This document shows, piece by piece, positions 2,781-51,772 of a DNA stretch of 53,784 nucleotides. A model generated the notes under the pieces. The model made no database searches. It was not told the origin of the DNA and saw only the letters and a list, made by a program, of their open reading frames with translations. Within the stretch, counting starts at the first letter, position 1. Every line of letters starts with the position of its first letter. The translations under genes and the position numbers were made by a program. The stretch spans positions 1-53,784 of the forward strand of contig QPGO01000328.1 of the NCBI GenBank assembly GCA_008632985.1, given 5' to 3'. The stretch is from Psammoneis japonica. Its lineage: Eukaryota.

Positions 2781-3277
2781 TTCCTGTTGTTTGGAACTTC
2801 CGTCCTTTCCTGTTGCTTCATGAAAGGCAAGTTGCAAAATGAGCGCACTTTGCATGTGATTTTCTTGGTTTTGTTGTTGCTCGCGTGTCCTCTCTTGATT
2901 CAAACAGGTCTTTGTGTCATTTTTGAGTGCTCATTCCCAACCCCATGTTTGCACCTCCATTGATGTTTCACTGTTTTGAATTGTGCACCTTTGTCAGCCA
3001 ATCCAATGCACCAATGAAGATTGCAATGTCATTTGAATCAATGCCAAACAATGTGCCACATCTCTTTGCATTGATGCATGCATTGCGCCTCCTTCATGAT
3101 GCAACATCTGCTTCATTTGGCATGTCAAGTCATGTCAAACCTCCCATTTGTTGTCCCTGTCTCAATGGGTCATTCTCTCTGCTTCCCCGACACCACATCT
3201 CTCCAGTTGCTCTCTCTGTTGCCCAAATTATCCAGCCCACTTTAGTGTCCACTGAAGTGTGTTGTTGTCACTGAGAT

Positions 3278-4066
3278 GTGGTTGTCGTGAGTCATTCCCG
3301 TCATGGGAACGCATGTTCCCTCTGTTGCAATCACATGCCGCCAATTGATGATCAAATTGGTTGTTTTGCTGGTGGTGGTGTGGAATCACATGGTGGTGCG
3401 GCAAGCTTTGCCTTCTCCACCGAGGTCATTTGTAACCCCGCTCTCTTTGCGGCACAAATTCGAAGCCGTTTTAATTTCCTCGACATTGGTGGTGGTGTTG
3501 GCGGTTTTGCGATTGCCTGTCGTCTGTTTGTTCCTGCCTGCAATGCCCACAGCATCAAGTTCCACCGTCCCCGTCATGATCTGGGCTCTCAGTGGTGTGA
3601 TGCCATGTGGCACAACAACGCCAGTCGCTTTCCCACCCTGATCAATCAGGACTTCCTCTCCGAAGACGATGCTGTGCATCGGTTGCACCGTCTGAACAAC
3701 TTAAAGATTTTCTTCAACAACTGCAATGGGCAAATGCTTTTTGACAACAATGCAACACAGAACCAACTTGAGGAGATGCTGTCCAACAAGTGTCCTGAAG
3801 GTGCCATTGTCATTTCACTGGACGTGATGTTTTGTGTTTGTGTGCACAAATGGAGGCATGAATCATTCTTTGTTCCTGCCCATCCAGATGATCTGTCGTG
3901 GGGAGGCGGTGTCGATGGGCACCCACTTCACAAGTGCGCCAAGAAAAGAGACGATGCCATGGAGACAAGGCATTCCACTGGGAACGACCTGGGGTCTGAC
4001 ATCAAATGTGAATTCAAGCCTGCCAAAAGTGGGCAACTTTGCAATTCCCCTTTGTTTGTGATGTGA
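3278..4066 (+). pseudogene. DOT1-like (H3K79) class I SAM-dependent methyltransferase, transposon cargo
   Basis: DOT1-like motifs occur in order: ESHG (SYGE), FLDIGGGVG (FxDLGSGVG), QDFL (GDFL), IFFNN (IFVNN), PEGAIVISL (KEGxRIVS), LSWGG..PLH (VSWT..YY). There is no Tyr in 262 aa. Confidence 0.7.
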
Positions 4067-4191
4067 CTTTCGTCTGTGCAAGCAATGCATTGTCAATTGG
4101 CCCTTCACACAAACCTGCTTTTTACCTGCATCAACTTGCTGCTTCACCAGTTTTGCATTCCAACACCTGCTTGTTCACATGCTTGCCATGT

Positions 4192-5141
4192 TCACATGCT
4201 TGCCATGTCAAAATTGTGGACTGGACATGCCATGTTCCTTCGATCCGAGTTCGTTTTGTCAGGCAAAGCTTGGCGCGACATTCTTGCATCAAAAACAAAT
4301 GCAGTGCCTGCTTCTCCAGCCAGTGATTGTTTTTCCAAACCCAACCTGACCAAGTGTCTTTCACGTTCCTTCTCATTCAATGTCACCTCACAACCATCCG
4401 GCCATGTCTCAGCTGTGCCATTGTGCTCCGTTGCGTTGTTGAGGAACAGAAACATGGTGAAAATTTTGTCACCAGGTGACAATTTGGTTTCCACGCAATC
4501 GCAATGAATTTCCCCTTTGACCAGAAGTTTGATCTTGAACGTGAAGCAGGAGCATTTGCTGCTGTGTGTCGGGACATCTTTCTGCTTGAATCACCTGCCA
4601 GGGGAAAGCCAGGAATTAACTCCAACATTTTCTCTGCCAACCCAATGCCTTCCGCCTTGTCCTTTTTGTTGATGGCAAACTCGCCGACAAAACGGTGTCC
4701 TTCCTTCTCTCCCTCACCACTTGGTGCCTTGTTTGCCAGTGTTGTTGTCTTGTTGAGCAGGGGTGGTGGTGTTTTGAATTTTTGCAAGTGGCCTTTTTTT
4801 CTTTCCTGGTGCTCTTTTTCTTTGGACCCCGCCGTCTCACTCTTGACGACATGAGATTTCATTTCGCCCGGGTGTGTCAGCAACTTGCCATGTTTCTGGC
4901 ATGACGTTGTTGGCCAACGGGCAAATTTCTGGCATCCGTTCACAGAACACTTCTGCGCCATTCTCTGAAAATGCCTGTTCTGCCAAATCAAATGGTGCCT
5001 GGTCTTTTTCTTTAAGTGGAGCAGACCCAATCCAGCGAAAGTCTGCACCCATTGCTTTCCAACAAAAACGGCTTTCTTGCTAAATGTGTGTTGCCAACGG
5101 CAGTCCATCTGTTGTGTGCACCACAGATGTTTTTTTCGCAA
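4192..5141 (-). pseudogene. Zn-finger + 2OG-Fe(II) dioxygenase (PhyH-like DSBH fold), transposon cargo, frameshift near 4515
   Basis: The frame of ORF 4192..4494 extended upstream reads KGEIHCDC (HxD). It continues TMFLFLNNATEHNGTAETWP and GEAGTAFVFDARMSRQALPDKTNSDR (distal His position reads Arg; 2OG-binding Arg present). The N-terminal frame has a CSVNGCQKFARWPTTSCQKHG C-x4-C..C-x2-HG finger. Confidence 0.6.
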
Positions 5142-5228
5142 ACAGCCCCATGTGATGTGTTGACAATGGCAGTCTGTCTGTCGGGTGCACCACAGATGTT
5201 TTTTTCGTAAACAGTCCCATGGGATGTG
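5091..5228. repeat. 69-bp tandem duplication
   Basis: CACAGATGTTTTTTTCG occurs at 5122 and 5191. The copies differ at GCAAAC vs GTAAAC. Confidence 0.75.
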
Positions 5229-5954
5229 ATCTTTGTCGATCCTGTTTGCTGCATGATCTCATCAAATGTGTCATCCCAGCCATCTCAAAAGCATGGAAAA
5301 CAATTTTGTTGCTCACAATCCTGTCAGTGATCTTGTGAGATGTTTTCACATCCCCACAGCGGCAGACACAAAGGAAAAGCTGCCATCCACTGCACATTCT
5401 GCACCACAAACAAACTCATTTGGAATTTTGCACATGACAGACAATTGCAAATGACAGGCATTGCTTTTTTGGCAATGCACCTGTCTGTCAACAGAGCAAT
5501 TTGGCATCACTTTTTTGTTGTTGCAACCATGTGTTGACAAAGCAATTTGGCATCACTTTTCCATTGTCAAACACATCTGATGACAGAAGAATTTGGCATC
5601 AGTTTTTTGTTGACACGTGTGTCTGTCAACACATGCCTTTGGTGCCACTTTTTTATTTTTGCACTTGACGCTGGCCTGTGCAGCATCGTGACATGAAGTG
5701 CATCTCCCGCAGCAAACCACATTCTCCCGAATCTTGTCCAAGTTGCTGATCAACTCATGTTGAGCAGCAAACAGATGACGTTTGGGTGACTCTGTCTCTT
5801 GTCCTCTGTGTCCTTGTCATTCCCTTTGCAAAACAACAACCTCAAAATGATCCCACCCCAAAGAATGCTGCCCAATCCCTTGCCTGTTAGGCCACGTTGC
5901 TGAAATGGAACCGACAAATCTCTTTTTCGCCTGACACATCGTACTTCTCTCCCA

Positions 5955-8900
5955 ATGACATTCCACCTGACTCAACCTGCAGTGTTGACCAATGATCCAT
6001 CTGGCCGTTGTCCCCCACCAATGCATCTGGCCCCGTTTGGCATAGAAAACAGCCTTGACACCAAATTGAGGCCACATTGTTCTCCCACACTTTGGGCAAA
6101 TGAACGCGGTCATGTTCATTTGTCACTCAAAAAAAATGGTTTGACAGATCACTTGATCCATGGCATCATGCTGATGATGTTTGATGCAAAAATCTTTACA
6201 TTCGAGAGCAGTGGGAAGAGCAATGTGTGCAACCCAAACCACCTTGGTGAATTTGCAAAATGGCCAGTGCACCCAAGCCACATTAGATTGGCTTTGAAGG
6301 AAGCCACCCTGCCAGAGCTGGCTCGACGAAAGAAAAAAAGGCATGCAAAAAAATCATTGATGCTTGCTGCTTCCAAAACAAAAAATGCCAAAGATCCACA
6401 GCGGCGCAGGTGAGGGATTGCATCTTGTGCACCACCTCCAATTCCCATCTGTTTCTCACCTGACAAAATCATTGTTGATGTTTCCTAGAATGACACCCAA
6501 GCTGAAGGTCCAACAATTGCAACTGGTGTCGGCTCCTGTGTGGAAAGTGCAAATGACAATGACAATGACACAACATGGGTGGAGACGGATGTCATGGATG
6601 ACAAACAACAAATTTGGGCTGTTGCAGACAGCGAAGAAGATTTGCTGGCAAGGGATTTCATCTGTTGTGCTGCTTCCCTTTCCCATCTGTTCCCCACCTG
6701 ACCAAGTGCATGTTGATGTCTCCCAGAATGACAGCAATGCTCAAAGTCAAACAATCACCACCGGCATCGACTCTGTTGAGGAGGCTGCCCATGACAACGA
6801 CAATGACTCTACATGGGTGGAGACAGATGACATGGTTGACGAACATCCAATTGATGCAAGCAGATTGTTGGCAATTGGCATGGAAGCTGGTGGTGATTTA
6901 AATGGAGTGACAAAGATGCGCGCGACAGCATTCAAACTCAACGCCTGCTGGATCTTGGATGTGACGTTTGCACAATTGACAAGAGGATGTGCTGCACTTC
7001 CTCGCCAAAGCACACAGAGTGCGATGTTCTAAGTTTGCACAGATCAGCACAATGGAAGAGATTGTCCAAAGAGACAAAGTTCGATCACATTTGCTTTGAC
7101 TGCATGTGTTCAAACCCGGCCTGTCTCTTGGCTTCAGCTCCAAAGGGACCTTTTTTCTAAGACACACTCAGGGAGCTGCTGCGGTCGCTGACGGATGATG
7201 GGATGTTCTTCCTGCCTGCACACAATCTTGCATTTTCCAAGTTTTGGATGGAATGGAAGAAACAACGCATGTCGGAAGTGCACCCAATTCGCTTCTTGCG
7301 TGAAGAAGAGCAAGCACACAACGAGGTCCCCATCCTTCGAGATGAGGCACAAGCAGACATCTCTGCCTGCAGAAAGTTTTGTGCAAGGGAAGAATGCATT
7401 GAGGATTGTGAGTTAAAACATGAAGAAGTGAAATGGCTCACAGCAACAGATGAAGCTGCATTGGCGCATTTTCCAGATTTCGGGGGTCCAGTCAAACACA
7501 TTGGATCAACTAGAAGAAGAAAGGACCCTTGCCATGCACCAGTTTTTGCCGGTGACAACTGTGTGTTTTGTCCAACATGCAGTCTCAAGAGACACGAGCG
7601 TTTTCGGCGATGCCCATGTTGCAGGCCAGCTCCCATCCGGAATGCTGTGCAGTTTGATCTTGACTACAAAGACGTGCCTGACTCAGCATGTGGGACAAAA
7701 AACAGCAAGAAAACCAGGGAAGAATCTCTCCTCTAGCAAATCAAACAGTGCAACGCCAATCTTGTCAGCTGTTGGAGGCAGAAGGACCAACCACATGGGG
7801 TTGGTGGCAAGAACTGGGGTTTGTTGTTAACACGTCCCAAAAGCATTGGCAAAAATGCGAACAATGAAAGAGAACTCAAGTGAAAATTCTGCCTGAAACA
7901 ACCTCACCGGAAGTCCAACAAGCTGTCTGACACGTTCGACAACAACATTCCATTCATTGAAAAACCAGGCAGGGCGGGAACGAGGTGTTCCCTTGTCATC
8001 CACTTCAAGCTGCGTGCAACAGCACATGGTGCAATGGGTCCGAATGCTTCAAAGCAAATGTGTCGGCACCTGCAAAGCAAGGCAGAGATTCTACATTTGA
8101 GTGCTGACCACCCGCACAGGGCAAGCGATCCAACTCGTCCATTCATTTTGAACCAAGACACAATGGAGGGAATTGCCGACAATGCCGTCTTCAGGTCGTG
8201 CAAGTTTGACAAAAGAATTCTTGGATTGGGTTTGTCAATGCAGCTCAGAGCCATTGTTGAACAGGGACTCAGCAGTGGGTTGGCAAGAGAGTTTTTACTT
8301 GCAGCAAAGTTTGACCATTCATTTTGAGGGACTGTTGCCAAAGATTTTGATGTGAGTGGAGTGATTGCTCAAGGTTGGAGCCACCATGGTGGGTCAGGTG
8401 TTGCAAGGCCTGGAATGACAGAAAAGGAAAAGGACCTCTCTCCGAGATGCAGACAGTGGGTTTTGCAACTGACCGTGATTTTGGTTCACATTGTGTGCCA
8501 AAAAGCTTTGCAGGGAACACCAAGGTCTTCCCAGGGAGAAATGTTGGAGGAAAGACGAAGGTTGTCTGAGAAATGCCAAGTCTGGTTGGGTTGCCCAGAA
8601 TGATTGCGAGGTGTGTTAAAGCTTGATGAGGCAGGATCTCACATTGCCGGTTTTGCTTTCACACACTTCGACAGGGAAAATGAGTGGGAATTCCTCTTGG
8701 ATGACATTGGCAACGGTGTTGTCTTCATTGATGATTGGCGGGATTGCAACATTGGCAAAGATTTGGTGGACAAGCTGAAAAGGCATTTGGCCCCCATCAC
8801 CAACACCACGTTCAACCATCTGTCGTACAACCGAGAGATTGTCGGAATTCAGTTACGAAAGCTGCTGTTCAAGATGGATTGTGAACATGCAAATGCCCTG

Positions 8901-10298: not shown

Positions 10299-13200
10299 TC
10301 ATTTCTCCTTGTCTTGCTTCCTGCGTTTGTCTGGGTGAAGCTGGATCACTTTGTTGGACAGGAAACAATTCGGCCAGTCATTGTGTCTGTCTGTGACAAA
10401 CAACATTGAGCTCAAGTGTCCCAATGCTTCAACATTGTCTTCATTGCAGTTGTCAGGAACAAGGACAGAGAAACCACCCGCTGCCATTGCGTCTCTGCCA
10501 GCACACTGAAATTTTGGGATCATCTGAGACTCTCTGCCACGACCAACAATTGTTGTTTCAAGTTCCCAGTGCTCAACCACACCGTTGGAAGACTTGTCAC
10601 GCAACGTCTTTGTCTGTTTCTTGCATGACTGTCCTGTGGCAAGCGGCGTTGTTCCGTCATCAGCCAACACAAAACCATGGAGCACAAATGGGTGCCTTTT
10701 TTTCTGACTGGTTCCCTCTTCATTCAAGACCCTGGGTGTGTTGCACCACAACCCATTGTTGTTGCAATTGGGGTGTCCACACATTAAAATCCCTTTCTCT
10801 GGTGTGGCAAACTCCGAGCAAACAACTGCTTCATCACACTTGACGGAAAGTTCCTCCGTTGGCGACAACAAAAACTCAAGCAGGGTGGAGTCCAATTCTG
10901 CAGTTTCCGGGATGACACGGATCTTGTTGCTGCCTGAACACTGACAGCAAGTTCATGTGGTTCTGTTCACAACAAACAAGGGGTGCATCAATTTTTCTTC
11001 AGAGGAATTTACGCTCGCCTGTCCAACCGTGGAAGGGATGAGAAGGCTGTGTGCCTTCTCAAGAACTGCCATGTCATGCAGACGCACAATGAGTTGGTCC
11101 AAGAAATTGTCTGCACCCAGTGCAACCTGGCAAGTTTTTGCCGGAAGCTCAGCACAGAACTTCAGGTGACTCTCTCCAATCATGGCAGAGAAATTTGCAA
11201 TCTGGCCACAAAGGAAAGAGTCGACAACGAGATGCAGCACAGAGTGGAACTTGGCAGTCCAGAACAAACGAGTGTTCCTTGCACGACGAAGGCATGCTTT
11301 TGTCTTGAACATGAGCAAGACGACTCGGCACTTGAAATCCACCTTTCCTGTTTTTCCACAGAGTCCCTTTCCATGCAGACAAAACAAATGGAAAAGCAGC
11401 GCATGATGCAACAAGTCCAACAATTCATCGACTCCACAATCAACGGATTTTTCGGCTGTCGTTTCGTCATCTGCCATCTTCATAAAAGCTTGAGGAAGTT
11501 TGTTTTCTATTTCCGCACAGATGACAGTGCTTGGCAGTTTTGACTTGGTGAGCAGATGGTGCCGTCCATCCGCACACCTTGCAAAGTTGCCCCAATCATC
11601 TGCCGATTCAACAACAAGACCATGTGGTCCGGGTGTCGACAATTGTTCAGGTGAAGTCTCAACAGCCCGTTGTTTCCATCTCAATGATTTTGTTTCGTCC
11701 CATGCAATCTTCTGGCACAACAAAAAGCGATCGTTGTCTGGTTGCTTGGAAAATGGTTCCCAAAATTCAGAAAGGCCGTGACGATGCATCTGTTGCATCA
11801 CACAGTTTTGGTGATGAAGATCGGATGGGCCGCAGGCAACATCAGACCATGTCTCCTCTTTAGGAAGTGCAGCCGGCACATTCTCATCAACCTGGCTTGT
11901 GTTTGTTGTGCTGGTTTGTTCATTGGATGGTTCAACGGGCTCAGTGTCCTCATCTTGGGTTCACTTTCTGACGATTTGGTCAATTGTTCATCTTGTTGCT
12001 TCTTTCCTTTAAAGCCATCAGCCGTCTTTTTCTTTTTGCTGTCAAAGGATGGATCGCACCTTTTTTCCAGCAGTTTTCTACCAGCATGTGTGTGACCAAT
12101 GATTGCAAGTGCAAGAAGCTTTCCCATCTTTTTGTCACATGCAAGTTGACTGAGTGTGGAAAGTCCCCCATCAATTTGAATTCACGGGCAGTCACGTCTC
12201 TGACCTGGACGACAATGGGATGTGCAGAATGACTCAGATGCAATCCGGTCGCATTCCTCTTTCTGTTTGGTGGACATCTCTCCAATGATTGCCTCCATCA
12301 TTTGAGGGACAATGCCAGCCTCCAATGCATGCATCATGTCAGCAACGGTCATGCCAAATGCACCACATGGGTTGTCGCCCATGTCAAGTGGAAAGTGAGC
12401 ATTGTCCACTGCGTGCTGTCCAAACACTTTTCTCAAAATTTTGGAGCATGCAGTCATTCGGCGAATGAGGGATGAAGCCAGCTCAGTCTCAGCCTTTTTT
12501 TTGATGTCATTGCACGATGTTTCCGGGAAACGCTTTTGACATGCTGGTGCCAACGGCTGTTGTCATCCTCTGGATCTGGACCCAATGCAGCTGCAGCGAG
12601 CAACTCTGTGAAAGCTTGGTTGCAAAATTGGCAGACATGGCTCTTCCACAAATGCGTTCTTGATTGAGGATGTTCCCCAACAGGGAGTTGCAATGCATCA
12701 CAGCTCTGACATGGCGGCATTGAGTGCCTGTTGTTGCACGAACAATGGGTGGATTCGCCTGGCAATGAAGCAGACCATGGAGAGCCTCCTTGAGAATGCG
12801 GCGACAGTTGGCAACAACAAGGCACCCAAGCTTGTCTTTCTTGTCTTTCTTGTCCAAATTGGGTGTGAATCCAAGTGGACGCCAACAACGACAGTCACGG
12901 CATGCTTCCTCTTGAATCATGGTGAGTGAGCGCATTGCAGGCTCCATCCCGTGAGGATTGACCGCACCAACTCCGGTCTTGTCCGAGTGATTGACAAGGT
13001 GAATGTGAAAATCTGATGCCGTTTCCTTGGTGTTGGAGCAACGTTGTTGCCACTCGCCGTCACCCATGTCTTGACTTTGAGTGGACAATTGCCAGTCACC
13101 AGGACAATCCGGGAATGACATCTCAACACCGTCAGCCTGGCCAGCACTGGGATCCAAATCGCCGTCAGTGGGGGGTGGCACACAAGGTGACCAGACATCA

Positions 13201-14514
13201 TTTGGATTGACCTGCAACTTGGAAAGATCACGGAACACTGGCTTGGTGAAGAGATCCTGCAAGGTCTCGGTGAAACTGCAAACCGGAAAAGGTGGGGAGC
13301 GATGACATTTGGGTCCGTCCTTCTGTTGCTGTGTTGGATTGTTGCATTCTAGCATCACAGCAGCAGTGCGGGGGAGAGGAACATTGGGAAATGACCCCAG
13401 GAGTTGCTTCATCGCCACGGCGGTCGTGATGGGTGGCTTTGTCAAATCCAGTCTTTTTTCTGCATGCTCTTCATGCAAAATTCTCACCACTTTGTCAATG
13501 AAGTCAATTGCAACACCTGGCCGACAACACAAATGCAGCAAACGCACCATGGGTGCAATGCTGGGTGAGCAGACTGGAGGCACATCAAAATCCTCATCGG
13601 GTGCAACATCACGCGGTGGGCCAAGAGGGTTGTGTTGATCGAGGGAGGAAACAGGATCTTCTGTTGGACGGGAAATTGAGGGGGGGGCCACAACTGCCAT
13701 CGCGATGGTCGGCTCCAATGAACTCAGGAACATCCACAGGACTGTCCTCTCCAAGGGCGGACACACCATCATCTGCAAACAAAACAAATCGGCGGGCATT
13801 TTGGGAGGCTGCGCTGGCGGCAGCAGCATTGGCGGCTGAACGCAATCGACCAGAGCATCTGACGGAGGGTGGGCGCAGTCCACTTCTGGCAGAGGGAGGA
13901 CAAGCTGGAGAAGAATTGTCCGTTGGTTTGGGAGGAGATGGAGCTGGATTCCAAAGGACTTCGGGGAGGGGAGGAGGGGGTTCGTCGTCAGAGAAACCAA
14001 ACCCAGCAGGATCATCATGGTCATCCAGTGATTCATCGTCTGGAGGGGGAAGTGCATTGGTGGCAGCAGAAGATGCAGCATGCAGGCGAAGGGACATTTC
14101 CTCCTTTTCACGGCAGGGCAAGCACTTCTGTAGATGAAGGGCGACGTTGGAAAAGGGGACACGGCAATGGGGGCATTTGGGTTTGTTGGTGTTGGATCCA
14201 AGGGAGCCGACAGAGGCGGAATCCAGAGGATGAGAGGAAAGAGGTGTTCTGCTGGATGAAGAAGACAATTGGGCTGCATGGCACAGCTGTGTCAATGGGG
14301 GATGGAGACCAGATGCTGTGGTGCAGGGCCGAGACAGGTGACGCTGCACGTTGTTTTCAGAGTCAAGTCCATGTTGTCCACAATGAGGACAACCAAAAGA
14401 CTTGGTGGAAATGGCAGAACGGAGGCAGTCAGTTGTGATGTGCCTGCTGAGGCCACATTCGGAAAAGAAACCGGTTTGTTTGCACCATGGACAAACAAGA
14501 CCATCAGATGACAT
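10299..14514 (-). pseudogene. Plavaka-family transposase with N-terminal C2H2-like zinc fingers, fragmented
   Basis: ATG at 14514 (MSSDGLVCPWC) is followed by three CxxC..H fingers. Core motifs are NHSDKTGVG..EP..SLT..WRPLGFTP, DNAHFPLDMGDNPCGAFG..DMMHALEAG and WTAKFH..LH...CGQIANF..GESHLK..PAKTCQ. Confidence 0.75.
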
Positions 14515-14957: not shown

Positions 14958-15584
14958 ATGTTTGTTTTCCCAAAAAAGACATGTTTGTTTTCTTTGAAAC
15001 AACATGTTTGTTTTTCCTTAAAAGAACATGTTTGTTTTCCTTGAAACAACATGTTTGTTTTTGTTGAAACGACGTGTTTCTTTTCCTTGAAATGACACGC
15101 TTCTTTTCCTTGAAAAGACATGTTTGTTTTTCTTAAAAACACATGTTTGTTTTCCTTGAAATGACATGTTTGTTTCCTTGAAAACACATGTTTGTTTTCC
15201 TTGAAACAACATGTTTGTTTTCCTTGAAAAGACATGTTTGTTTTCCCAAAAAAGACATGTTTGTTTTCTTTGAAACAACATGTTTGTTTTTCCTTAAAAG
15301 AACATGTTTGTTTTCCTTGAAAGAACATGTTTGTTTTCCTTGAAATGACATGTTTGTTTTCCTTGCAACAACTTGTTTGTTTTCCTTGCAACAACTCATT
15401 TGTTTTCCTTGCAACAACTTGCTCTTCGATTTCTTTGAAAGAACATGTTTGTTTTCCTTGAAACAACATGTTTGTTTTCCTTGAAATGACCTGGTTGTTT
15501 TCCTTGAAACAACATGTTTGTTTTCTTTGAAACAACATGTTTGTTTTTCTTGAAATGACATGTTTGGTTTCACTGAAATGACAT
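14958..15584. repeat. 23-bp tandem satellite, array 2 (continuation of array 1)
   Basis: Same unit and orientation as 725-1098, about 27 units. Confidence 0.95.
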
Positions 15585-17939: not shown

Positions 17940-18600
17940 TCTCTTCTGCTTCCGCACATTGCAGTTTGCAGTGGAGACTGCTGTTGGATGAAAACACGCC
18001 AAGATCCAGCAGCCGGTTTGTGTGGCTGTTCTTCAGTCTTCCAGCCTTCCATGCTTGCTTTTGCGTGTCCAACCAATGTCCAAGTCTCTCTCCATTTTCA
18101 ATGTGAAATGGGGCACTTTTCAGCTTCTCTTGTGCAAAACGAAAAAATTTGAGAAGAGAAAACACAGTTTCTCAATGCTCAGCCAGAATGTCCCAATTGG
18201 CTCAGGCCTTTTTCAGTTGTTCCTGTTGAGAAGCGTCAATTTTCCTTTTCCTTGTGGCACCCCGTTGGTCATTTGGCCATTTTCCAAAGTTCTCCCCATC
18301 CTCTTTGTGGCCCCTTGGCATGTTGCAATGTCCCTCCCATTTTGTGAATTGCTTGAGAAGAGAGGGCATTGTGCCCCATTGATTTTCCCACAAGAGCCAC
18401 TCAACACTGGCCTCCTCAAGTTTTTCTTCTTTTTCAATGCCGAGCTTGCTGAGCTTGTGTTTTGTGGCCATTGGTTGTCCAACCAAATTCCAAGAGCAAA
18501 GCCATCCTCAGCACATTTGCTGGGAACATTGCATCTGCCTTCTCTCTCCAAGCAAACCAAGAGCAGGCTGCAAGCACAACACGGCGCTAATTTCAGCAAC
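17940..18600 (-). pseudogene. Helicase-associated (HA) domain repeat protein remnant
   Basis: Three HA-like units: EREGRCNVP..EDGFALGIWLDNQ; WEGHCNMPRGHKEDGENFGKWPNDQR; ENGERLGHWLDTQKQAWKAGRL..RLLDLG. Confidence 0.75.
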
Positions 18601-18702: not shown

Positions 18703-19087
18703 CATGTTTGTTTTCCTTGAAATGACATGTTTGTTTTCCTTGAAAGAACATGTCAGTTTTCCTTGAAACAACACGTTTGTTTTCCTTGAAACGGCGCGTT
18801 TGTTTTCCTTGAAAAGACATGTTTGTTTTCCTTGAAACGACACGTTTGTTTTCCTTGAAAGGACATGTTTGTTTTCCTTGAAACAACGTGTTTGTTTTCC
18901 TTGAAAAACATGTTTGTTTTCCTTGAAAAAACATGTTTGTTTTCCTTCAAAGGACATGTTTGTTTTCCTTGAAAAGACATGTTTGTTTTCCTTCAAAGGA
19001 CATGTTTGTTTTCCTTGAAAAGACGTGTTTGTTTTCCTTGAAAGAACTTGCATGTTTGTTTTCCTTGAAAGAACTTGCATGTTTTCC
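18703..19087. repeat. 23-bp tandem satellite, array 3
   Basis: Same unit and orientation as arrays 1 and 2, about 16 units. Confidence 0.95.
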
Positions 19088-19544
19088 TCCCCAGGATGAC
19101 AAAATGTGTTGTCCATTGTGGATGAACAGAGTGACTGTGAGGCTCACACAATGGGCACAGATGGGAAGCTGAGCACTCCACGAGTGCCGTGGTGACAGGT
19201 CCACGCAGTCAACCAGCAAATGGGAGGCCACCCCATGCTGTTTTGTCTGAATGAGCACATGCTCTGGGCTCAATGCCCCACACTGCTGTGTCCAACACCT
19301 GTTGCACATGTTGGGAACTGATGTGTTTGCAAGTGTGACGCCATTTCCACCACAGCAATTCTCATTGTTCTCATTTTGGAGCAAATTTTCTGCATGCATG
19401 TGCAGAACCCAGCACCCTTTCTGCTGCTGACACCCATGTGGTTCTGCACAGCAACGAACAATTGCTTGTGTCATTTGTTTCATGCCCGCAAAATGGCTCA
19501 ACAACAGATCTTGGCTCTGACAAAGCGAGCAAATGCAGGTCATT

Positions 19545-43109: not shown

Positions 43110-44485
43110 GGGCGCTCAACATCTCACACTGCACACCGGTGTCCACGTTGCTGCAAAATCAGCAGCGCCAGATGCGCCAACACAACGGCAAGTGCATGTG
43201 TTGCCGTTCATGTCAGTTCATCCACATCATGCTCTCACAACATGCTCCATGCTTTTTGGCAATTAACAAGGTGGGTCAGAGCAACAGCACCTCTGCTGCA
43301 AACTTGCCTGCTCCAGAATCAGTGGCATCGGATGCACTGGTGAGTCCATGTTGCTGCTCCCATGGGTTGTGTTGGTTCATCTGTGTTGTGCTCTCACAAT
43401 GGGCTCCACTCTTTTTGGCAATGAATGAGGTGGAACAGAGTGGCGGCACTTCAAATCATGGAACACCAGCAGCTATCCTGCTGCAAACTCGCCTGGTCCA
43501 GAATCAGTGGTGCCGGATGCACCGGCAAGTCTGTGTTGCTGTTCCTGTTGGCAGTGTTGGTTCATCCACATTGTGCTCTCACAACAAGTTCTGCACTTTT
43601 TGGCAATGAACAAGTGGGGCTGCCAGCAGCGGCACTTCAAGAAAGCAAGCTGCAGCTGCTGGTTGTCTCCATCAGCACCATTCAATTTAAATGCAAACAA
43701 CAAAATGGAGTGTTTGTGGCACAGCGCAAATGATTTTAATTTCAGGTTTTGTGTGGACAGAGGGTGGGCACTCTCACAGGGAAAATGTGCCCCCATTTCA
43801 CAGCAAAGTGAATGGGTGCTCAACATCTCACACCACACACCGGTGTCCACGTTGCTGCAAAATCAGCAGTGCTGGATGCACCAACACAACGGCAAGTGTG
43901 TGTGTTGCCATTTATGTCAGTTCATCCACACCATGCTCTCACAACATGCTCCACACTTTTTGGCAATGAACAAGGTGGGTCAGAGCAACAGCACCTCTGC
44001 TGCAAACTTGCCTGCTCCAGAATCAGTGGCATCGGATGCACTGGTGAGTCCATGTTGCTGTTCCCATGGGTTGTGTTGGTTCATCTGTGTTGTGCTCTTA
44101 CAATGGGCTCCACTCTTTTTGGCAACAAACGAGGTGGAACAGAGTGGCAGCACTTCAAATCATGGAACACCAGCAGCTGTCCTGCTGCAAACTCGCCTGG
44201 TCCAGAATCAGTGGCACCAGATGCACCGGCAAGTCCATGTTGCTGTTCCTGTCAGCAGTGTTGGTTCGTCCACATTGTGCTCTCACAACGTGGGACTGCT
44301 CTGCACTTTTTGGCAATGAACAAGTGGCTGCCAGCAGCGGCGCTTCAAGAAAGCAAGCTGCAGCTGCTGGTTGTCTCTGTCAGCACCATTTGATTTAAAT
44401 GCAAACAACAAAATTTCAATTTGCAGGTTTTGTGGGGACAGAGGGTGGGCACTCTCACAGGGAAAACGTGCCCCCATTTCACAGC
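43110..44485. repeat. ~704-bp tandem duplication built from shorter internal subrepeats
   Basis: GTCCACGTTGCTGCAAAATCAGCAG occurs at 43141 and 43845. GCTCTCACAA..TTTTTGGCAA recurs about three times per copy. Confidence 0.9.
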
Positions 44486-46570
44486 GAAACAAGAAGTGTT
44501 CCTCAGGGGGGGGGGTTCAGGTCAGATCCCACAGCACAAAAATGTTCATCTGTCACAGCTGGCATGTTGTTGTTGCCAGCTGCACAACTGATGAGGTTTG
44601 AAAGCAAAAAAATGGACATCTGCAAAAAGAACAAAAACCACCATGAGAAAGAAGGCGTCGATCACTGTGTTGCGTGCTCTGATGTTCCATGAAGAAATTT
44701 GGTCTGGCCTCTCTTTTTCTTGGCTGGCAACCAGATTGCACCAATCAGGGGAGTGTGAGAACAGCCATTTTTGAGAGAGTTTGCTGGGCAAAGGTGCAAC
44801 AGCACTTTAAGTTGTTTTTTTTTTTTTTTTTTGTGCACACCCAGTGTCATGACACAGATGCTGGTGCACACAGATGGTGGGCTGGATCTCTTTGAAATGC
44901 TCCACACATGTTCCCTTCATTGCCAGGACTGCATTTGTTGTTGCTGTCTCCCAGCATCTTGTTGAGTCAGCCAACAAGGCCAAAAAGGAGGCAAGAAAGC
45001 TGGGGAACAACAAAACAAAAAATGAGCACCACAGCACCAAGCTTGAGCGCAAGAAATGTTGTGCGCTGAAAACCACACTGTGAGATCATGACACTGGCAA
45101 CAAGCAACCTGGCAATGGGAGCCTGCCTTGCTTTCAGCACTTTTTTGACTTTTTGCAAGATTGTCCTTTTGAAGCACTCATCTGAGGAGCTCCAAAGGGA
45201 TGTGTTTTTCTTTTTCCAGCTTTCCACTGCATGTGCTGTTGCACTCATCTGTCACTCTGATGGAACAAACAAGTGGCCTTGCATTGCACTTAGAGACAGT
45301 GTGCTCCAGCACTCTTTGAAAGGTCAAATGTGGTGCAGATGAGCTCATGCTAAAGCAAAATTGTTTTCAGAAAATGACCAGTGCAGGTCTTGATTGTGTT
45401 GCTCCCTGCAGCCCAGGTTTCATGGCTTGATGCTTTGAAGCAAATGTGTCAGATTTCAAGATGAGAAGAGGCACAGGAACATCAGCTCTGCAACTGCTTG
45501 TGGCCATTGTTTTTTGACACATTTCTTGTTGTGCAAGAGTGTGTAAGAAGCCATTTCTTTTTTTTTTTTCCGTTGTGACCTCCTTTGCATGTGCCATTTT
45601 TGGCACTTCATTCCCATCCATGACAGAAATGATGAGCTGCTCTCAATGAAAGTTGGCGTTGCACCCCTGAGTCCTGAGTTCCAGTGCATGTCAGCTCTGA
45701 TTGATTCACCAAGAAGTTTGTCTTGTGCTTGATGATGGCAGTCATCAGCTGCAACAAACAGCTCAATGTTGCGCATCATTTTGTGGCAGCTTGCCAAGCC
45801 AAGATGTGCTCAAACAGTGTGGCAAAAAAGCCACAGTTTGAACATGTTGCTTGTTGTTGACAAGCCATTGTCAGCTGTGAGACCCCCTGCCAAAAGTCCA
45901 ATGAGGAAGTCACATCACACAGCAGTGGCTCTTTTTTTCTCTGCCAGCACATTTCCCTCCAACTCGTCCATCAGAAACAAGCTGGCATTCCTTGTGGGCC
46001 ATCATCTGGCTGTGAATTGAGAATGTCTTGAGTTTTTGATTGTTTTTCAAAGCCTGGAAGTTGCCCAAGCAGCTGCATTGCAGGGAAATGGTGCAACTCA
46101 CACCTTGCACAAAGAAACGCTGCGGATGGCTGACTTGTGTTTCTGCAGCGACCCCCAACCAAAAGCAGCAGGTCAAGCTTTATGTGGACAAGGCAACTGC
46201 CAATCCATCCATGCTTTCATTTTTGCAATGAGCAGCAATGATCTGGAGCACTTTGCCTCAAACTGGCATTTTCAATGTTGCATTCCTTGGCACCAACAAT
46301 GAAGCTTGAGTGAGGATGAAGAGATGCGGCCGATGGCCAGCAATGTGCCACGAAATGATGACGAGGAAAATTAAAATCAAGGGATCCGCAAACATCATTC
46401 TGAGAGCCGCTTGTTATGTCGGCATTTCATCTTGGTTGGATTTGATGAAGCTTATGGTGTAGATGCGATCCCGAAAAAAGCATGGTCTCAGAGACCGGAT
46501 TGAATCGAATAAAGTAGGAGGCTGAAAGAAGGAAGATTGAAACAAGACGATAGTAATTTATCTTCTTTTT

Positions 46571-49520: not shown

Positions 49521-51772
49521 TTAGTTCGGATATTCTTCATCTTCATCACAAAGCATGCACGATTGAGCGTGCTCAATGAGAGCATACTCAAAGCCATCGA
49601 CCACGGCATTGAGACTGGCCGAAATGACATTACGATCCACACTGACGGTAGTCCAATGGTCGTCGGAGTCCTTGTCTCGAAACTCCACCATGACTCGTGT
49701 GGCCGCTGCCGTGGCATACTCAGGATCGAGAATACGAACCTTGTAGTCCACAAGCTCGACTCCCGCCAGTGAAGGATGCGACGGAACTAGGGCCTTCTTC
49801 AAGGCGGAAACCAAAGCATCGACTGGACCATTCCCATCACTCACCTCCAACCGATTAATGTAGAGAGGTGGCAATTCCCCATCGGGTGATGGCTATGGTA
49901 CGCGAGCAAGCCAAAGAAAATTTTTAGAAAAACGCGCATCGACATCACCGGCAGTGCAATATAGTATTACTCGTGTGTTCATACCTTATCGTCGAAATTG
50001 GGCGTTCGAACCTTGATTGTAGCGCGTGACGTAGCTCCGTTATTGTCTTTGCAATCAGCAGAACGTAGAGTCCGCAAGGCGGGATCCAGATTGGTATCAT
50101 AGACTTGGGCAGAATAGGTCCAACACCTTGAACGGCGGGGCAGTAGCCTTTAGANNNNNNNNNNNNNNNNNNNNNNNNNNNNNNNNNNNNNNNNNNNNNN
50201 NNNNNNNNNNNNNNNNNNNNNNNNNNNNNNNNNNNNNNNNNNNNNNNNNNNNTGGCATGATGACTAGCCTCCTCTCCTTCGTAACCCGCTTCCTTTACTT
50301 TTCCCAGAATGTTTTGTCGTCCCGACAGCTCACTAATGAGCACCCGTTTCTCATTTCCTACTTGTCCCGGATCGACATGCTGATACGACATGGGCGAACG
50401 TTCCAAAGCGGCAACGTGAAGGCCCCCCTTATGAGCAAAGGCAGAAGCGCCGACATAGGGAGCCGCCTGGTTGGGCGTCCGATTCAATATTTCATCGACA
50501 AAGCGGGACAAGGACGTGATTTGATCCAGGTTTCGATTGCAAGACGTTTTGGAGTTCATGTGCAGTGCAAGTGTTGGTACAATGGAGCATAAATCAGCAT
50601 TACCCGTTCGTTCTCCAATCCCATTGATTGTACCCTGAACCAGACCAACGCCAGCACGGATAGCCGTCAAACTATTGGCAACCGCAAGTCCACAATCGTT
50701 ATGCACATGAATACCAATAGTAACTTTTGATCCAAACTGCTCGACAATCCCTTGAGTCGCCTGCTGAATCTGCCACGGCATGGTTCCTCCATTGGTATCA
50801 CAAAGGACCAATCCCGAAGCCCCCGCATCGACAGCCGCCTTGCAACATTTGAGTGTGTACTCGTCGTCTTGTGCAAAGTACCCGTCAAAGAAATGCTCCA
50901 AATCCACATAGACCTGTCTGCCGTTCTGTACCAAATAGCTAACCGACTCGTAAATCATATCGAGATTCTCTTGCGGCGTTGCTCTTAAAATATCAGTAAC
51001 TTGATATAGATTTGCCTTGGCGACAATACATAGAGTCGGTGCTTGCGATTCCAACAAGGCTTGAATCTGTGGATCGTCCTGTGGTGTAACTCCTTTGCGT
51101 CGTGTGGAACCAAAGGCTGCCAGACACTGGCGTTCGTTCTCGGTAAGCTCGGATTTGGCACGCTGAAAAAACTCGGCATCCTTGGGATTGGATCCCGGCC
51201 ATCCAGCCTCTACTAGATCAACACCAAACTGAACCAGCCGACGAGTGATTTTTAACTTGTCATCACACGAAGCAGAGACGGATTCACCCTGCGTGCCGTC
51301 TGAATTGATATTATGAGAAAGAGATAGCATGAATGCTGTGAGTTTGAGTAAATAAGAAAGAGTCAATCGAGTGCAGTACCAGAGATCAACAAGCACAGGA
51401 CGAACACTATATAACCTCCTGCTCGAGTCAATCAGAACTTCACACAAGTATGCAGAACCCTGCAGATCTATCAAGCATACCTCTCAAAGATGTGTCGTAG
51501 ATTAGCACGTGTTCAGGCCCAACGACCGGTCCATTCGTCCCCTTTAATGCCTCTGATAGCTCTCTACTGTCGTCTTCTAGATTCTGTTGAATCCACTCGT
51601 CATTATTGAGTAGAGTTTTTGATTCCGTATCTTTTAATGTCGAGCCGACGCGTTGATTTCTCAGGGTGTAGCTATGAGATGCCGCTCTTGTTGGATTCGG
51701 TATCCAAGCATTACAAGAAGACACCGCAAGCACCAGTAACAGCGCCGCGAGACTTGTTTTATATGACGCCAT
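49521..51772 (-). CDS. cimA: Citramalate synthase (CimA-type, 2-isopropylmalate synthase family), probably plastid-targeted; intron 51300-51480; interrupted by N gap and indels
   Basis: YDTSLR|DGTQGE, EAGWPGSNPKD, EHFFDG, LCDTNGG, GIHVHND, GERTGNA and AFAHKGGLH. The regulatory domain has GNGPVDAL..LVDYKVRIL..TRV. Signal peptide ends CNA-W. Confidence 0.8.
50155..50252. other. Assembly gap
   Basis: Run of N. Confidence 0.99.

Follow-up and report, generated by a model that had tools for sequence, protein, structure and literature searches.

A decayed PhyH-type oxygenase gene with a putative zinc knuckle, probably a passenger of a Plavaka-type transposon, in Psammoneis japonica

Layout of the gene and its broken reading frame

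The DNA analysed here comprises positions 1 to 53,784 (forward strand) of contig QPGO01000328.1 from Psammoneis japonica (assembly GCA_008632985.1), and this whole stretch of 53,784 nucleotides is referred to below as the window. On its minus strand, at 4192-4961, lies a gene for an Fe(II)- and 2-oxoglutarate (2OG)-dependent dioxygenase of about 256 residues if read through, which is very probably a decayed passenger gene of a large, multi-copy DNA transposon of the Plavaka type. An initial annotation, made from the sequence alone, had proposed that a zinc-finger 2OG/Fe(II) dioxygenase lies concealed at 4192-5141 by a shift of frame, and this is borne out by 34 homologues, by profile matches to both reading frames and by the columns of the knuckle. 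The lower end of that interval (4192) stands, while its upper limit overshoots, as the family alignment starts at the Met codon at 4961.

Both frames lie on the minus strand. Frame A is open over 4383-5258 and includes a zinc-finger-like start, MAQKCSVNGCQKFARWPTTSCQKHG, from the ATG at 4961, whereas frame B is open over 4192-4590 and contains KGEIHCDC, FDARMSRQALPDKTNSDR, FLFLNNATEHNG and FVFDARMSRQALPDKTNSDRR. The parts of the gene are as follows.

4512-4961, minus strand: N-terminal 150 codons in frame A, from Met at 4961 to ...SNFWSKG; profile positions 164-310, E 6e-10
4192-4512, minus strand: C-terminal 106 codons in frame B, EIHCDC...MASM, the core of the double-stranded beta-helix (DSBH); profile positions 308-400, E 1.5e-28
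4192-4194, minus strand: stop codon of the dioxygenase, closing frame B
4512-4515, minus strand: frameshift site, four C on the plus strand (four G on the coding strand), one base lost
4890-4949, minus strand: putative zinc knuckle of CCCH type (three Cys, one His), C5, C10, C21 and H24 of MAQKCSVNGCQKFARWPTTSCQKH; all four ligand columns kept
4495-4506, minus strand: HxD iron-binding motif (HxD itself at 4498-4506), H-C-D-C in the window, H-R-D-F or H-R-D-Y in the family
4273-4275, minus strand: codon of the distal iron-binding His, CGC (Arg) in the window, His in 22 of 22 family sequences
4258-4260, minus strand: invariant Asn (...SLPN...), GAC (Asp) in the window, Asn in 22 of 22 family sequences
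4240-4242, minus strand: conserved Arg (...NSDR...), Arg in 19 of 22 family sequences and kept in the window; likely to bind 2OG, by analogy with PhyH-type enzymes

When frame B alone was compared with 1.84 billion cluster representatives (phmmer), 34 proteins were matched at E <= 1e-3, the best of them at E 7.3e-10 and 40% identity and none below 1e-10; frame A (4386-4961), when used by itself in a word-based search, returned no homologue at E <= 0.01. A family profile was built from the 23 frame B matches of at least 200 amino acids, and among the six-frame open reading frames (ORFs) of the window it recognised only the two frames of this gene at the E values given above, all others having E > 1. 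The two matches abut at ...APASRSRSNFWSKG and EIHCDC..., where the family counterpart reads ...S.RSNSWTKG.IHRDF, and on the DNA the break falls at tca aag ggg followed by (g)aa att cat, one G short in a run of G. Because the matches meet at SNFWSKG and EIHCD, the break is read as a single missing base in the run at 4512-4515. The read-through product falls inside the usual family size of 217-305 residues, and the Met at 4961 corresponds to alignment column 1, which is Met in 22 of 22 family sequences. No second copy of the gene, or of 3000-6000, was found elsewhere in the window.

It should be noted that an ORF of 132 amino acids is expected many times by chance in the window, where the mean chance ORF has about 35 codons, TpA stands at 0.25 of expectation and TAA and TAG are rare. 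With these stop codons almost absent, open frames are uninformative here, and hence the case rests on homology.

The homologue family, its predicted fold and the state of the window copy

The relatives come from metagenome and run assemblies, in which they are either unnamed or labelled 'hypothetical'. One match (P0002), an adhesin-like protein of 1940 amino acids that was matched in eight short stretches, was set aside as spurious, leaving 33 relatives. A Pfam scan covered 25 homologues (the longer matches together with P0002, nine matches of fewer than 190 amino acids being excluded); PhyH (PF05721) is listed for 24 of them, 23 reaching the 22-bit cut-off, and Tet_JBP for none of the 25. The window's own ORFs give no PhyH match, only 2OG-FeII_Oxy_3 at 15.6 bits (cut-off 27). 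Given the strong match of frame B to the family profile and the homologues that pass PhyH, the window copy is nevertheless a PhyH member by descent, now decayed.

The 22 full-length members that were aligned are 22-41% identical to the first sequence (P0013), and ten columns are invariant in all 22: the initial Met, an Ala, the H and D of HxD, two Gly, a D, an R, the distal H and an Asn. That the catalytic columns are unchanged at such low identity argues for a working enzyme in the family. The initial annotation had asked for conservation of HxD..H..R in intact homologues, and H, D and the distal H are present in 22 of 22, with the C-terminal R in 19 of 22. It had also read the window's motif as 'HRDY before decay'; the family consensus is HRD followed by F or Y (H and D in 22 of 22, R in 20 of 22), and other copies of the repeat mostly carry TAC (Tyr) where the window has TGC. 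Most members begin C-x4-5-C-x10-12-C-x2-H, with the ligand columns C, C, C and H occupied in 16, 15, 17 and 18 of the 22, a pattern from which metal binding by the knuckle may be inferred. As a separate observation, one homologue (P0019) carries a helicase-associated (HA) domain, and an ORF piece at 18205-18507 (minus strand) of the window resembles such a domain (W..QW...L..F....GH..VP) in a weak match, E 3.6.

An AlphaFold2 model of P0013, computed with the family alignment (mean pLDDT, the predicted local distance difference test, 84.6), shows a small N-terminal knuckle (first 20 residues at pLDDT 91) that is joined by a disordered linker to a double-stranded beta-helix, so that the DSBH fold anticipated for the family is indeed predicted. 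The best Foldseek matches to this model are AviO1, PrhA, EvdMO1, SnoN, KanJ, a proline hydroxylase, AsqJ and FtmOx1 (E 7e-11 to 5e-9). An all-against-all comparison with VIA-align likewise ranks SnoK (17.3), AviO1 (17.2), EvdMO1 (17.1), KanJ (16.3), human PhyH (14.9) and PHYHD1 (14.6) above the other folds AlkB (11.7), NgTET1 (11.2) and FTO (11.1), and the family profile finds AviO1 (E 2.5e-9) and EvdMO1 (E 4.8e-7) among PDB sequences. The predicted fold is thus closest to PhyH-type structures, and TET/JBP (PF12851) is favoured neither by profile nor as the closest fold, in keeping with the initial impression of motifs that are PhyH-like rather than TET-like. Judged from its sequences and the predicted structure, the family is a PhyH-type Fe(II)/2OG oxygenase with a putative N-terminal CCCH zinc knuckle.

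The window copy keeps eight of the ten invariant columns, the two lost being the distal H (now R) and the Asn (now D). Its iron triad H-x-D...H is therefore incomplete, with HxD kept and the distal His replaced by Arg; in addition, the near-invariant Arg of HRD is Cys, and neither frame holds a single Tyr, an amino acid that makes up 2.2% of the family. Other copies of the gene could be consulted in run X1, the sole public run that contains part of the window's DNA (0.32 of the sampled words), which was available as contigs and not as raw reads. Over 3200-5300 there are 1141 pieces of X1 contigs at 85-100% identity, covering all 30 bins, of which 158, 291, 509 and 183 lie at >=99, 95-99, 90-95 and <90% identity, respectively. 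Pieces so numerous and so diverged indicate that 3200-5300 is a high-copy repeat spanning both the dioxygenase and the neighbouring ORF. The X1 copies differ from the window at the following sites of the gene.

4274: majority T, depth 3569 of 4018; the coding strand reads CAC, His at the distal site
4277: majority A, depth 4018 of 4018; the coding strand reads Leu, as in the family
4496: majority T, depth 710 of 1012; the coding strand reads TAC, Tyr after HxD, in place of the window's TGC
behind 4511: one contig has an additional C, depth 152 of 416; the frame is restored (SKGEIH)

The distal His and the Tyr are thus retained in other copies, and the frame is intact in at least one contig. 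Run X2 contained no sequence that aligned to the stretch, and no public RNA run is listed for it.

These data bear on the possibility that the gene is alive, that is, that a homopolymer error in the assembly accounts for the break, or that the break is bypassed, and that the window encodes a working oxygenase. Both frames are open from end to end, the break falls in a four-base homopolymer to which one X1 contig adds a fifth base, and the eight invariant residues that are kept include HxD, with the conserved Arg kept as well. Open frames mean little, however, where TAA and TAG are nearly absent; the distal His, found throughout the family and in the X1 majority, is Arg in the window; most of the X1 depth at the break has the four-base form; and the ratio of observed to expected TpA, 0.06 at 4001-6000, marks a heavily mutated block. 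We therefore consider a living gene very improbable. The frameshift, the loss of the distal His, the change of the invariant Asn to Asp and the absence of any Tyr codon together mean that the window copy is dead.

The Plavaka relic, related loci and neighbouring features

The initial annotation had placed the gene in a Plavaka element, and this is supported by the remains of a transposase further upstream, which were recognised with a profile of 30 homologues of the 1294-amino-acid ORF of a metagenome locus (L020).

10956-14291, minus strand: relic of a Plavaka-type transposase in four frames, frameshifted, upstream of the dioxygenase on the same strand and collinear
12510-14291, minus strand: relic piece, profile 184-507
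12185-12562, minus strand: relic piece, profile 559-634
11801-12181, minus strand: relic piece, profile 651-714
10956-11960, minus strand: relic piece, profile 719-877

The four pieces match at E values from 1.6e-30 to 8e-7, and the window ORFs of the relic match no Pfam family. Of the 45 homologues found for the L020 transposase, 25 carry PF18759 (Plavaka) and one is named a Plavaka transposase by its source; an Atlas feature search agrees with this identity (0.97). The gene order of the window recurs in L020 itself, where the dioxygenase follows an intact Plavaka transposase encoded on the same strand. The repeat status of 3200-5300, for which many dispersed copies were found (one run, contigs), and the collinearity with L020 suggest that the dioxygenase and the transposase relic belong to one element.

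A scan of metagenomes gave 25 loci with family members. One (L025) was dropped as a false match (24%, E 8e-5), its contig being of bacterial type, with peptidases, SpoU and other such proteins. Among the remaining 24 eukaryote-like loci, L008 is the most informative: between 33-nt inverted arms at 4463-4495 and 12846-12878 it holds unnamed ORFs, the zinc-knuckle dioxygenase, a convergent SET-domain gene of 450 amino acids and the 957-amino-acid transposase of a Mutator-like element (MULE), and a further Mutator-like transposase lies outside the arms. From the left arm inward, locus L007 (from 257 onward) has the same sequence as L008, and beyond that arm the two are unrelated, which shows one element at two insertion sites and makes the dioxygenase the cargo of a mobile MULE. 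No target-site duplication of the L008 element is evident, and L005, L009 and L020 show no convincing long inverted repeats. A SET gene adjoins the dioxygenase in four of the 24 loci (L006, L007, L008 and L014). Three others (L009, L012 and L013) share a large convergent ORF with weak MULE matches (E 0.006 and 0.0005, both below the cut-off). In a comparison of dN/dS (nonsynonymous to synonymous substitution rates), L004/L005 and L006/L007/L008 proved near-identical, with only 2-10 differences. Homologues thus sit in or beside transposons and are not the unlinked metabolic genes that the initial annotation had named as its counter-case.

An unnamed neighbour of 374-401 amino acids recurs in these loci, always on the minus strand (L001:425-1627, L004:4485-5606, L005:10976-12097 and L024:406-1527), and occurs in two distant lineages. 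Its conserved H-x-D-F...H-x-G...R-F-H looks by eye like another metal-binding cupin or DSBH; it has no Pfam or PDB match, and kinship with the oxygenase family was not borne out (hhalign probability 0.3%).

On the other side of the dioxygenase in the window, an ORF of the plus strand (3275-4066) has its end at a distance of 125 bp from the stop codon of the dioxygenase, so that the two genes form a tail-to-tail pair, as initially described. This ORF, which lies within the same high-copy repeat, and the repeats of the window are as follows.

3335-4066, plus strand: possible relic of a DOT1-like S-adenosylmethionine (SAM) methyltransferase, with LDIGGGVGG (motif-I-like) and FFNNCNG; no Tyr
5087-5228 and 5457-5658: tandem repeats directly upstream of the dioxygenase, 69 bp x 2.1 and 46 bp x about 3-4, holding short inverted repeats
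725-1098, 14958-15584 and 18703-19088: arrays of a 23-bp unit (16, 27 and 17 copies), all direct and in one orientation

The SAM motif I and the NN-motif were read by eye, and an Atlas feature search (a language-model look-alike search) returned DOT1 (PF08123) as the nearest clusters (score 0.96, 20 matches). The DOT1-like identity is only a lead. Two further observations concern the surroundings. The 23-bp arrays frame two stretches, one of 13.9 kb with the Plavaka relic, the dioxygenase and the DOT1-like ORF, and another of 3.1 kb. Between the dioxygenase and the relic, an ORF at 7161-7736 (plus strand) ends in what looks by eye like a RING motif, C-x2-C...C-P-C-C-R, with no Pfam match.

Several observations weigh against the passenger reading and against the function considered below. 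Element ends were not found in the window, the 23-bp arrays being direct and not inverted; Plavaka termini are described as TGT..ACA or CATCA..TGATG with target-site duplications of 2-3 bp (PMC12730594). The dioxygenase and the relic are 6 kb apart, and that they form one element is something we infer. A transposase-like neighbour is present in only seven of the 24 eukaryote-like loci, 12 of which are shorter than 3 kb, and the others show only unnamed ORFs. The four-C form at the frameshift site is also carried by 264 of 416 of the X1 depth, and X1, with its limited share of the sampled words, may derive from a relative and not from the source of the window. For the neighbouring ORF (3335-4066), Pfam gives only Methyltransf_23 at E 0.084 and no DOT1 match at E <= 0.5, a homologue search was blank, PDB sequences yield only an antibody chain at E 1.1, and a single-sequence AlphaFold2 model reaches pLDDT 31. 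With regard to function, no Pfam family matches the zinc knuckle in the window or in the homologues, the top structural relatives are all small-molecule oxygenases (acting on antibiotic sugars, terpenoids and amino acids), and the matches include no conspicuous enzyme that modifies DNA or histones.

Some of these points would suit a captured host metabolic gene with no role in the transposon, whether taken up by chance in the manner of Pack-type elements or merely close to transposons in repeat-rich DNA: the closest solved relatives are all small-molecule enzymes, and unnamed ORFs make up the majority of the neighbours in the related loci, with a tRNA-synthetase fragment adjoining the dioxygenase in one (L017). 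We regard this as unlikely, since the same architecture of knuckle and oxygenase accompanies two unrelated superfamilies, Plavaka (L020 and the window) and MULE (L008), two insertion sites fix the left end of the MULE that contains the gene, and SET genes adjoin it repeatedly. Furthermore, invariant catalytic residues across 22 such divergent sequences would be unexpected for inert cargo, and the one search pattern used retrieved no relative from 185,579 prokaryote species genomes; the same type of search in IMG/VR viral contigs gave eight pattern matches, none of them confirmed. Hence a passenger gene of a Plavaka-type element remains our preferred account of 4192-4961.

Base composition, parallel systems and the possible role of active copies

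In steps of 2 kb the window is a sharp mosaic of composition, given here as ratios of observed to expected dinucleotides.

1-21 kb, 24-30 kb and 40-46 kb: stripped blocks, TpA 0.01-0.17, CpG 0.17-0.72, CpA and TpG 1.4-2.1
22-24 kb, 32-40 kb and 48-52 kb: ordinary blocks, TpA 0.57-0.69, CpG about 1, CpA and TpG 0.98-1.29
30-32 kb and 46-48 kb: intermediate 2-kb windows, TpA 0.34 and 0.40

The ordinary blocks carry SOUL, lysine methyltransferase, FG-GAP and HMGL-like genes, and the dioxygenase sits in the first stripped block, of 21 kb, where TpA is at about 0.05 and much of the CpG is gone as well. Two details of these blocks may be recorded: 98 N at 50155-50252 interrupt the HMGL-like or homocitrate-synthase-like ORF at 49945-51483 (minus strand), and another TpA-stripped block holds a tandem duplication of about 700 bp at 43110-44488 (89% identity).

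Among the 40 best-supported differences between the window and the X1 copies, 14 are CpG in other copies and TpG or CpA in the window (four are the reverse), other copies retain TpA at four sites, and ten form five adjacent TG/CA doublets, as would be expected if one ancestral TpA had been hit on different strands in different copies. These doublets lie at 4129-4130, 4416-4417, 4670-4671, 4746-4747 and 5000-5001. The change of the invariant Asn to Asp in the dioxygenase would likewise have been a TpA-to-TpG change, from an ancestral CCT AAC to CCT GAC.

A comparable signature is known from Bigelowiella natans, in which hypermutation of TpA to TpG or CpA has been measured in integrated viral DNA, and TpA-depleted transposon-like or foreign-derived sequences are taken to be its long-term trace; for its agent an adenosine deaminase is only proposed (bioRxiv 10.64898/2026.01.13.699255). 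The window shares the TpA signature and additionally shows loss of CpG.

The initial annotation had speculated that the oxygenase might act on nucleic acid or histone and might relate to, or counteract, the TpA-directed process. Such an oxygenase could in principle contribute to the process or oppose it, for example by oxidising thymine or by repairing a modified base. The gene does sit in TpA-stripped DNA, three metagenome loci that carry an intact family member of 256 amino acids (L004, L005 and L024) are likewise depleted (0.22-0.31), and the deaminase named as the agent in B. natans is itself no more than a proposal (bioRxiv 10.64898/2026.01.13.699255). However, TpA is at 0.58-1.03 in the other 21 of the 24 eukaryote-like loci, so that presence of the gene is not coupled to the process; foreign and repeat DNA in the window is stripped throughout, with or without the dioxygenase gene; the predicted fold is PhyH-type and not that of TET/JBP or AlkB; and a mutator of its own would bring a transposon no gain. 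A role of the oxygenase in the TpA process is accordingly hard to credit. The three depleted loci probably come from an organism related to that of the window. Their protein has GVCTF where the family has GVYTF, a Tyr-to-Cys change of the TpA-to-TpG kind.

Genes for dioxygenases of another type travel on transposons elsewhere. The first report of TET/JBP genes on fungal transposons was reportedly that of Iyer and co-workers in 2014. Fungal DNA transposons of several superfamilies (KDZ, Plavaka, EnSpm, hAT, Harbinger and Helitron) are described as carrying TET/JBP dioxygenases that are thought to oppose silencing (PMC12730594). On that description, these and the zinc-knuckle family are both Fe(II)/2OG dioxygenase accessory genes of DNA transposons including Plavaka, both have been captured by several unrelated superfamilies, and both may be proposed to act against silencing. 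The same source reports SET genes on MuDR and HarbingerS transposons of Phytophthora and cites the anti-silencing protein of Arabidopsis VANDAL elements (PMC12730594). These are Mutator-type elements with a histone-methyltransferase or anti-silencing gene, comparable to the L008 MULE with its SET gene, but the available part of that article mentions no oxygenase partner for them, whereas L008 carries the zinc-knuckle oxygenase.

A closer parallel may be offered by the giant Plavaka elements of the red alga Bostrychia moritziana, in which PAG2 combines an N6-adenine methylase with SET, and PAG3 joins a ParB-like N-terminal domain to a 2OG oxygenase (best HHpred match 2OPW_A, E 0.016) beside tandem inverted-repeat arrays; the cassette is also found on Mutator elements, and Plavaka and Mutator elements of Chondrus crispus carry such accessory genes too (bioRxiv 10.1101/2025.02.11.637652). 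PAG3, for which no InterPro domain is given there, differs from the zinc-knuckle family in its ParB-like N-terminus, a feature for which no match was found in the family, and the family in turn has the CCCH knuckle and passes Pfam PhyH. The partner genes also differ, SET and N6-methylase accompanying PAG3 and a DOT1-like-looking ORF accompanying the window gene. As 2OPW is presumably PHYHD1, PAG3 may be kin to the zinc-knuckle family, the two being set side by side here by description only.

Solved PhyH-type oxygenases, such as AviO1 (4xaa), EvdMO1 (6ec3), SnoK/SnoN, KanJ, EctD and human PhyH (2a1x), are by contrast stand-alone or biosynthetic-cluster enzymes for small molecules; for none of them is a zinc knuckle or a location on a transposon reported, and their identity to the family is only 12-24%. 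A literature search on phytanoyl-CoA dioxygenase and transposase, together with the Plavaka literature, found no publication on a transposon-encoded gene of the PhyH type.

In active copies, the zinc knuckle might tether the oxygenase to the DNA or chromatin of the element itself, where the enzyme could oxidise a chromatin protein or a nucleic-acid mark, and, together with the transposon's histone-methyltransferase-type gene (DOT1-like in the window, SET in relatives), it could keep the element unsilenced. This scheme follows the model proposed for fungal TET/JBP and for red-algal PAG2/PAG3, and we put it forward tentatively, as an analogy that we would sooner doubt than assert.

How selfish DNA resists silencing can be seen in transposons that bring along enzymes for modifying chromatin or DNA, and the oxygenase cargo known so far consists of TET/JBP in fungi and the poorly defined 2OG oxygenase PAG3 in red algae. 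The window copy is itself a fossil. Its use lies in pointing to the family and in showing clearly how TpA- and CpG-directed mutation can wreck a transposon gene whose frames stay open. The locus and its 33 relatives delineate a protein of about 250 residues that is compact and easily expressed and that joins a putative zinc knuckle to a predicted PhyH-type oxygenase; in uncultured marine eukaryotes it accompanies transposases of the Plavaka and MULE types as well as SET or DOT1-like genes. It is conceivable, although we consider it rather doubtful, that these proteins form an undescribed class of transposon-borne epigenetic enzymes in marine protists, captured repeatedly by Plavaka and MULE elements together with SET/DOT1-like genes, acting on the chromatin or DNA of the element as a third oxidative 'eraser' beside JmjC and TET/JBP, and maybe of the same lineage as PAG3. 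If an intact member did prove active on chromatin or DNA, the family would represent a new enzyme class in eukaryotic epigenetics.

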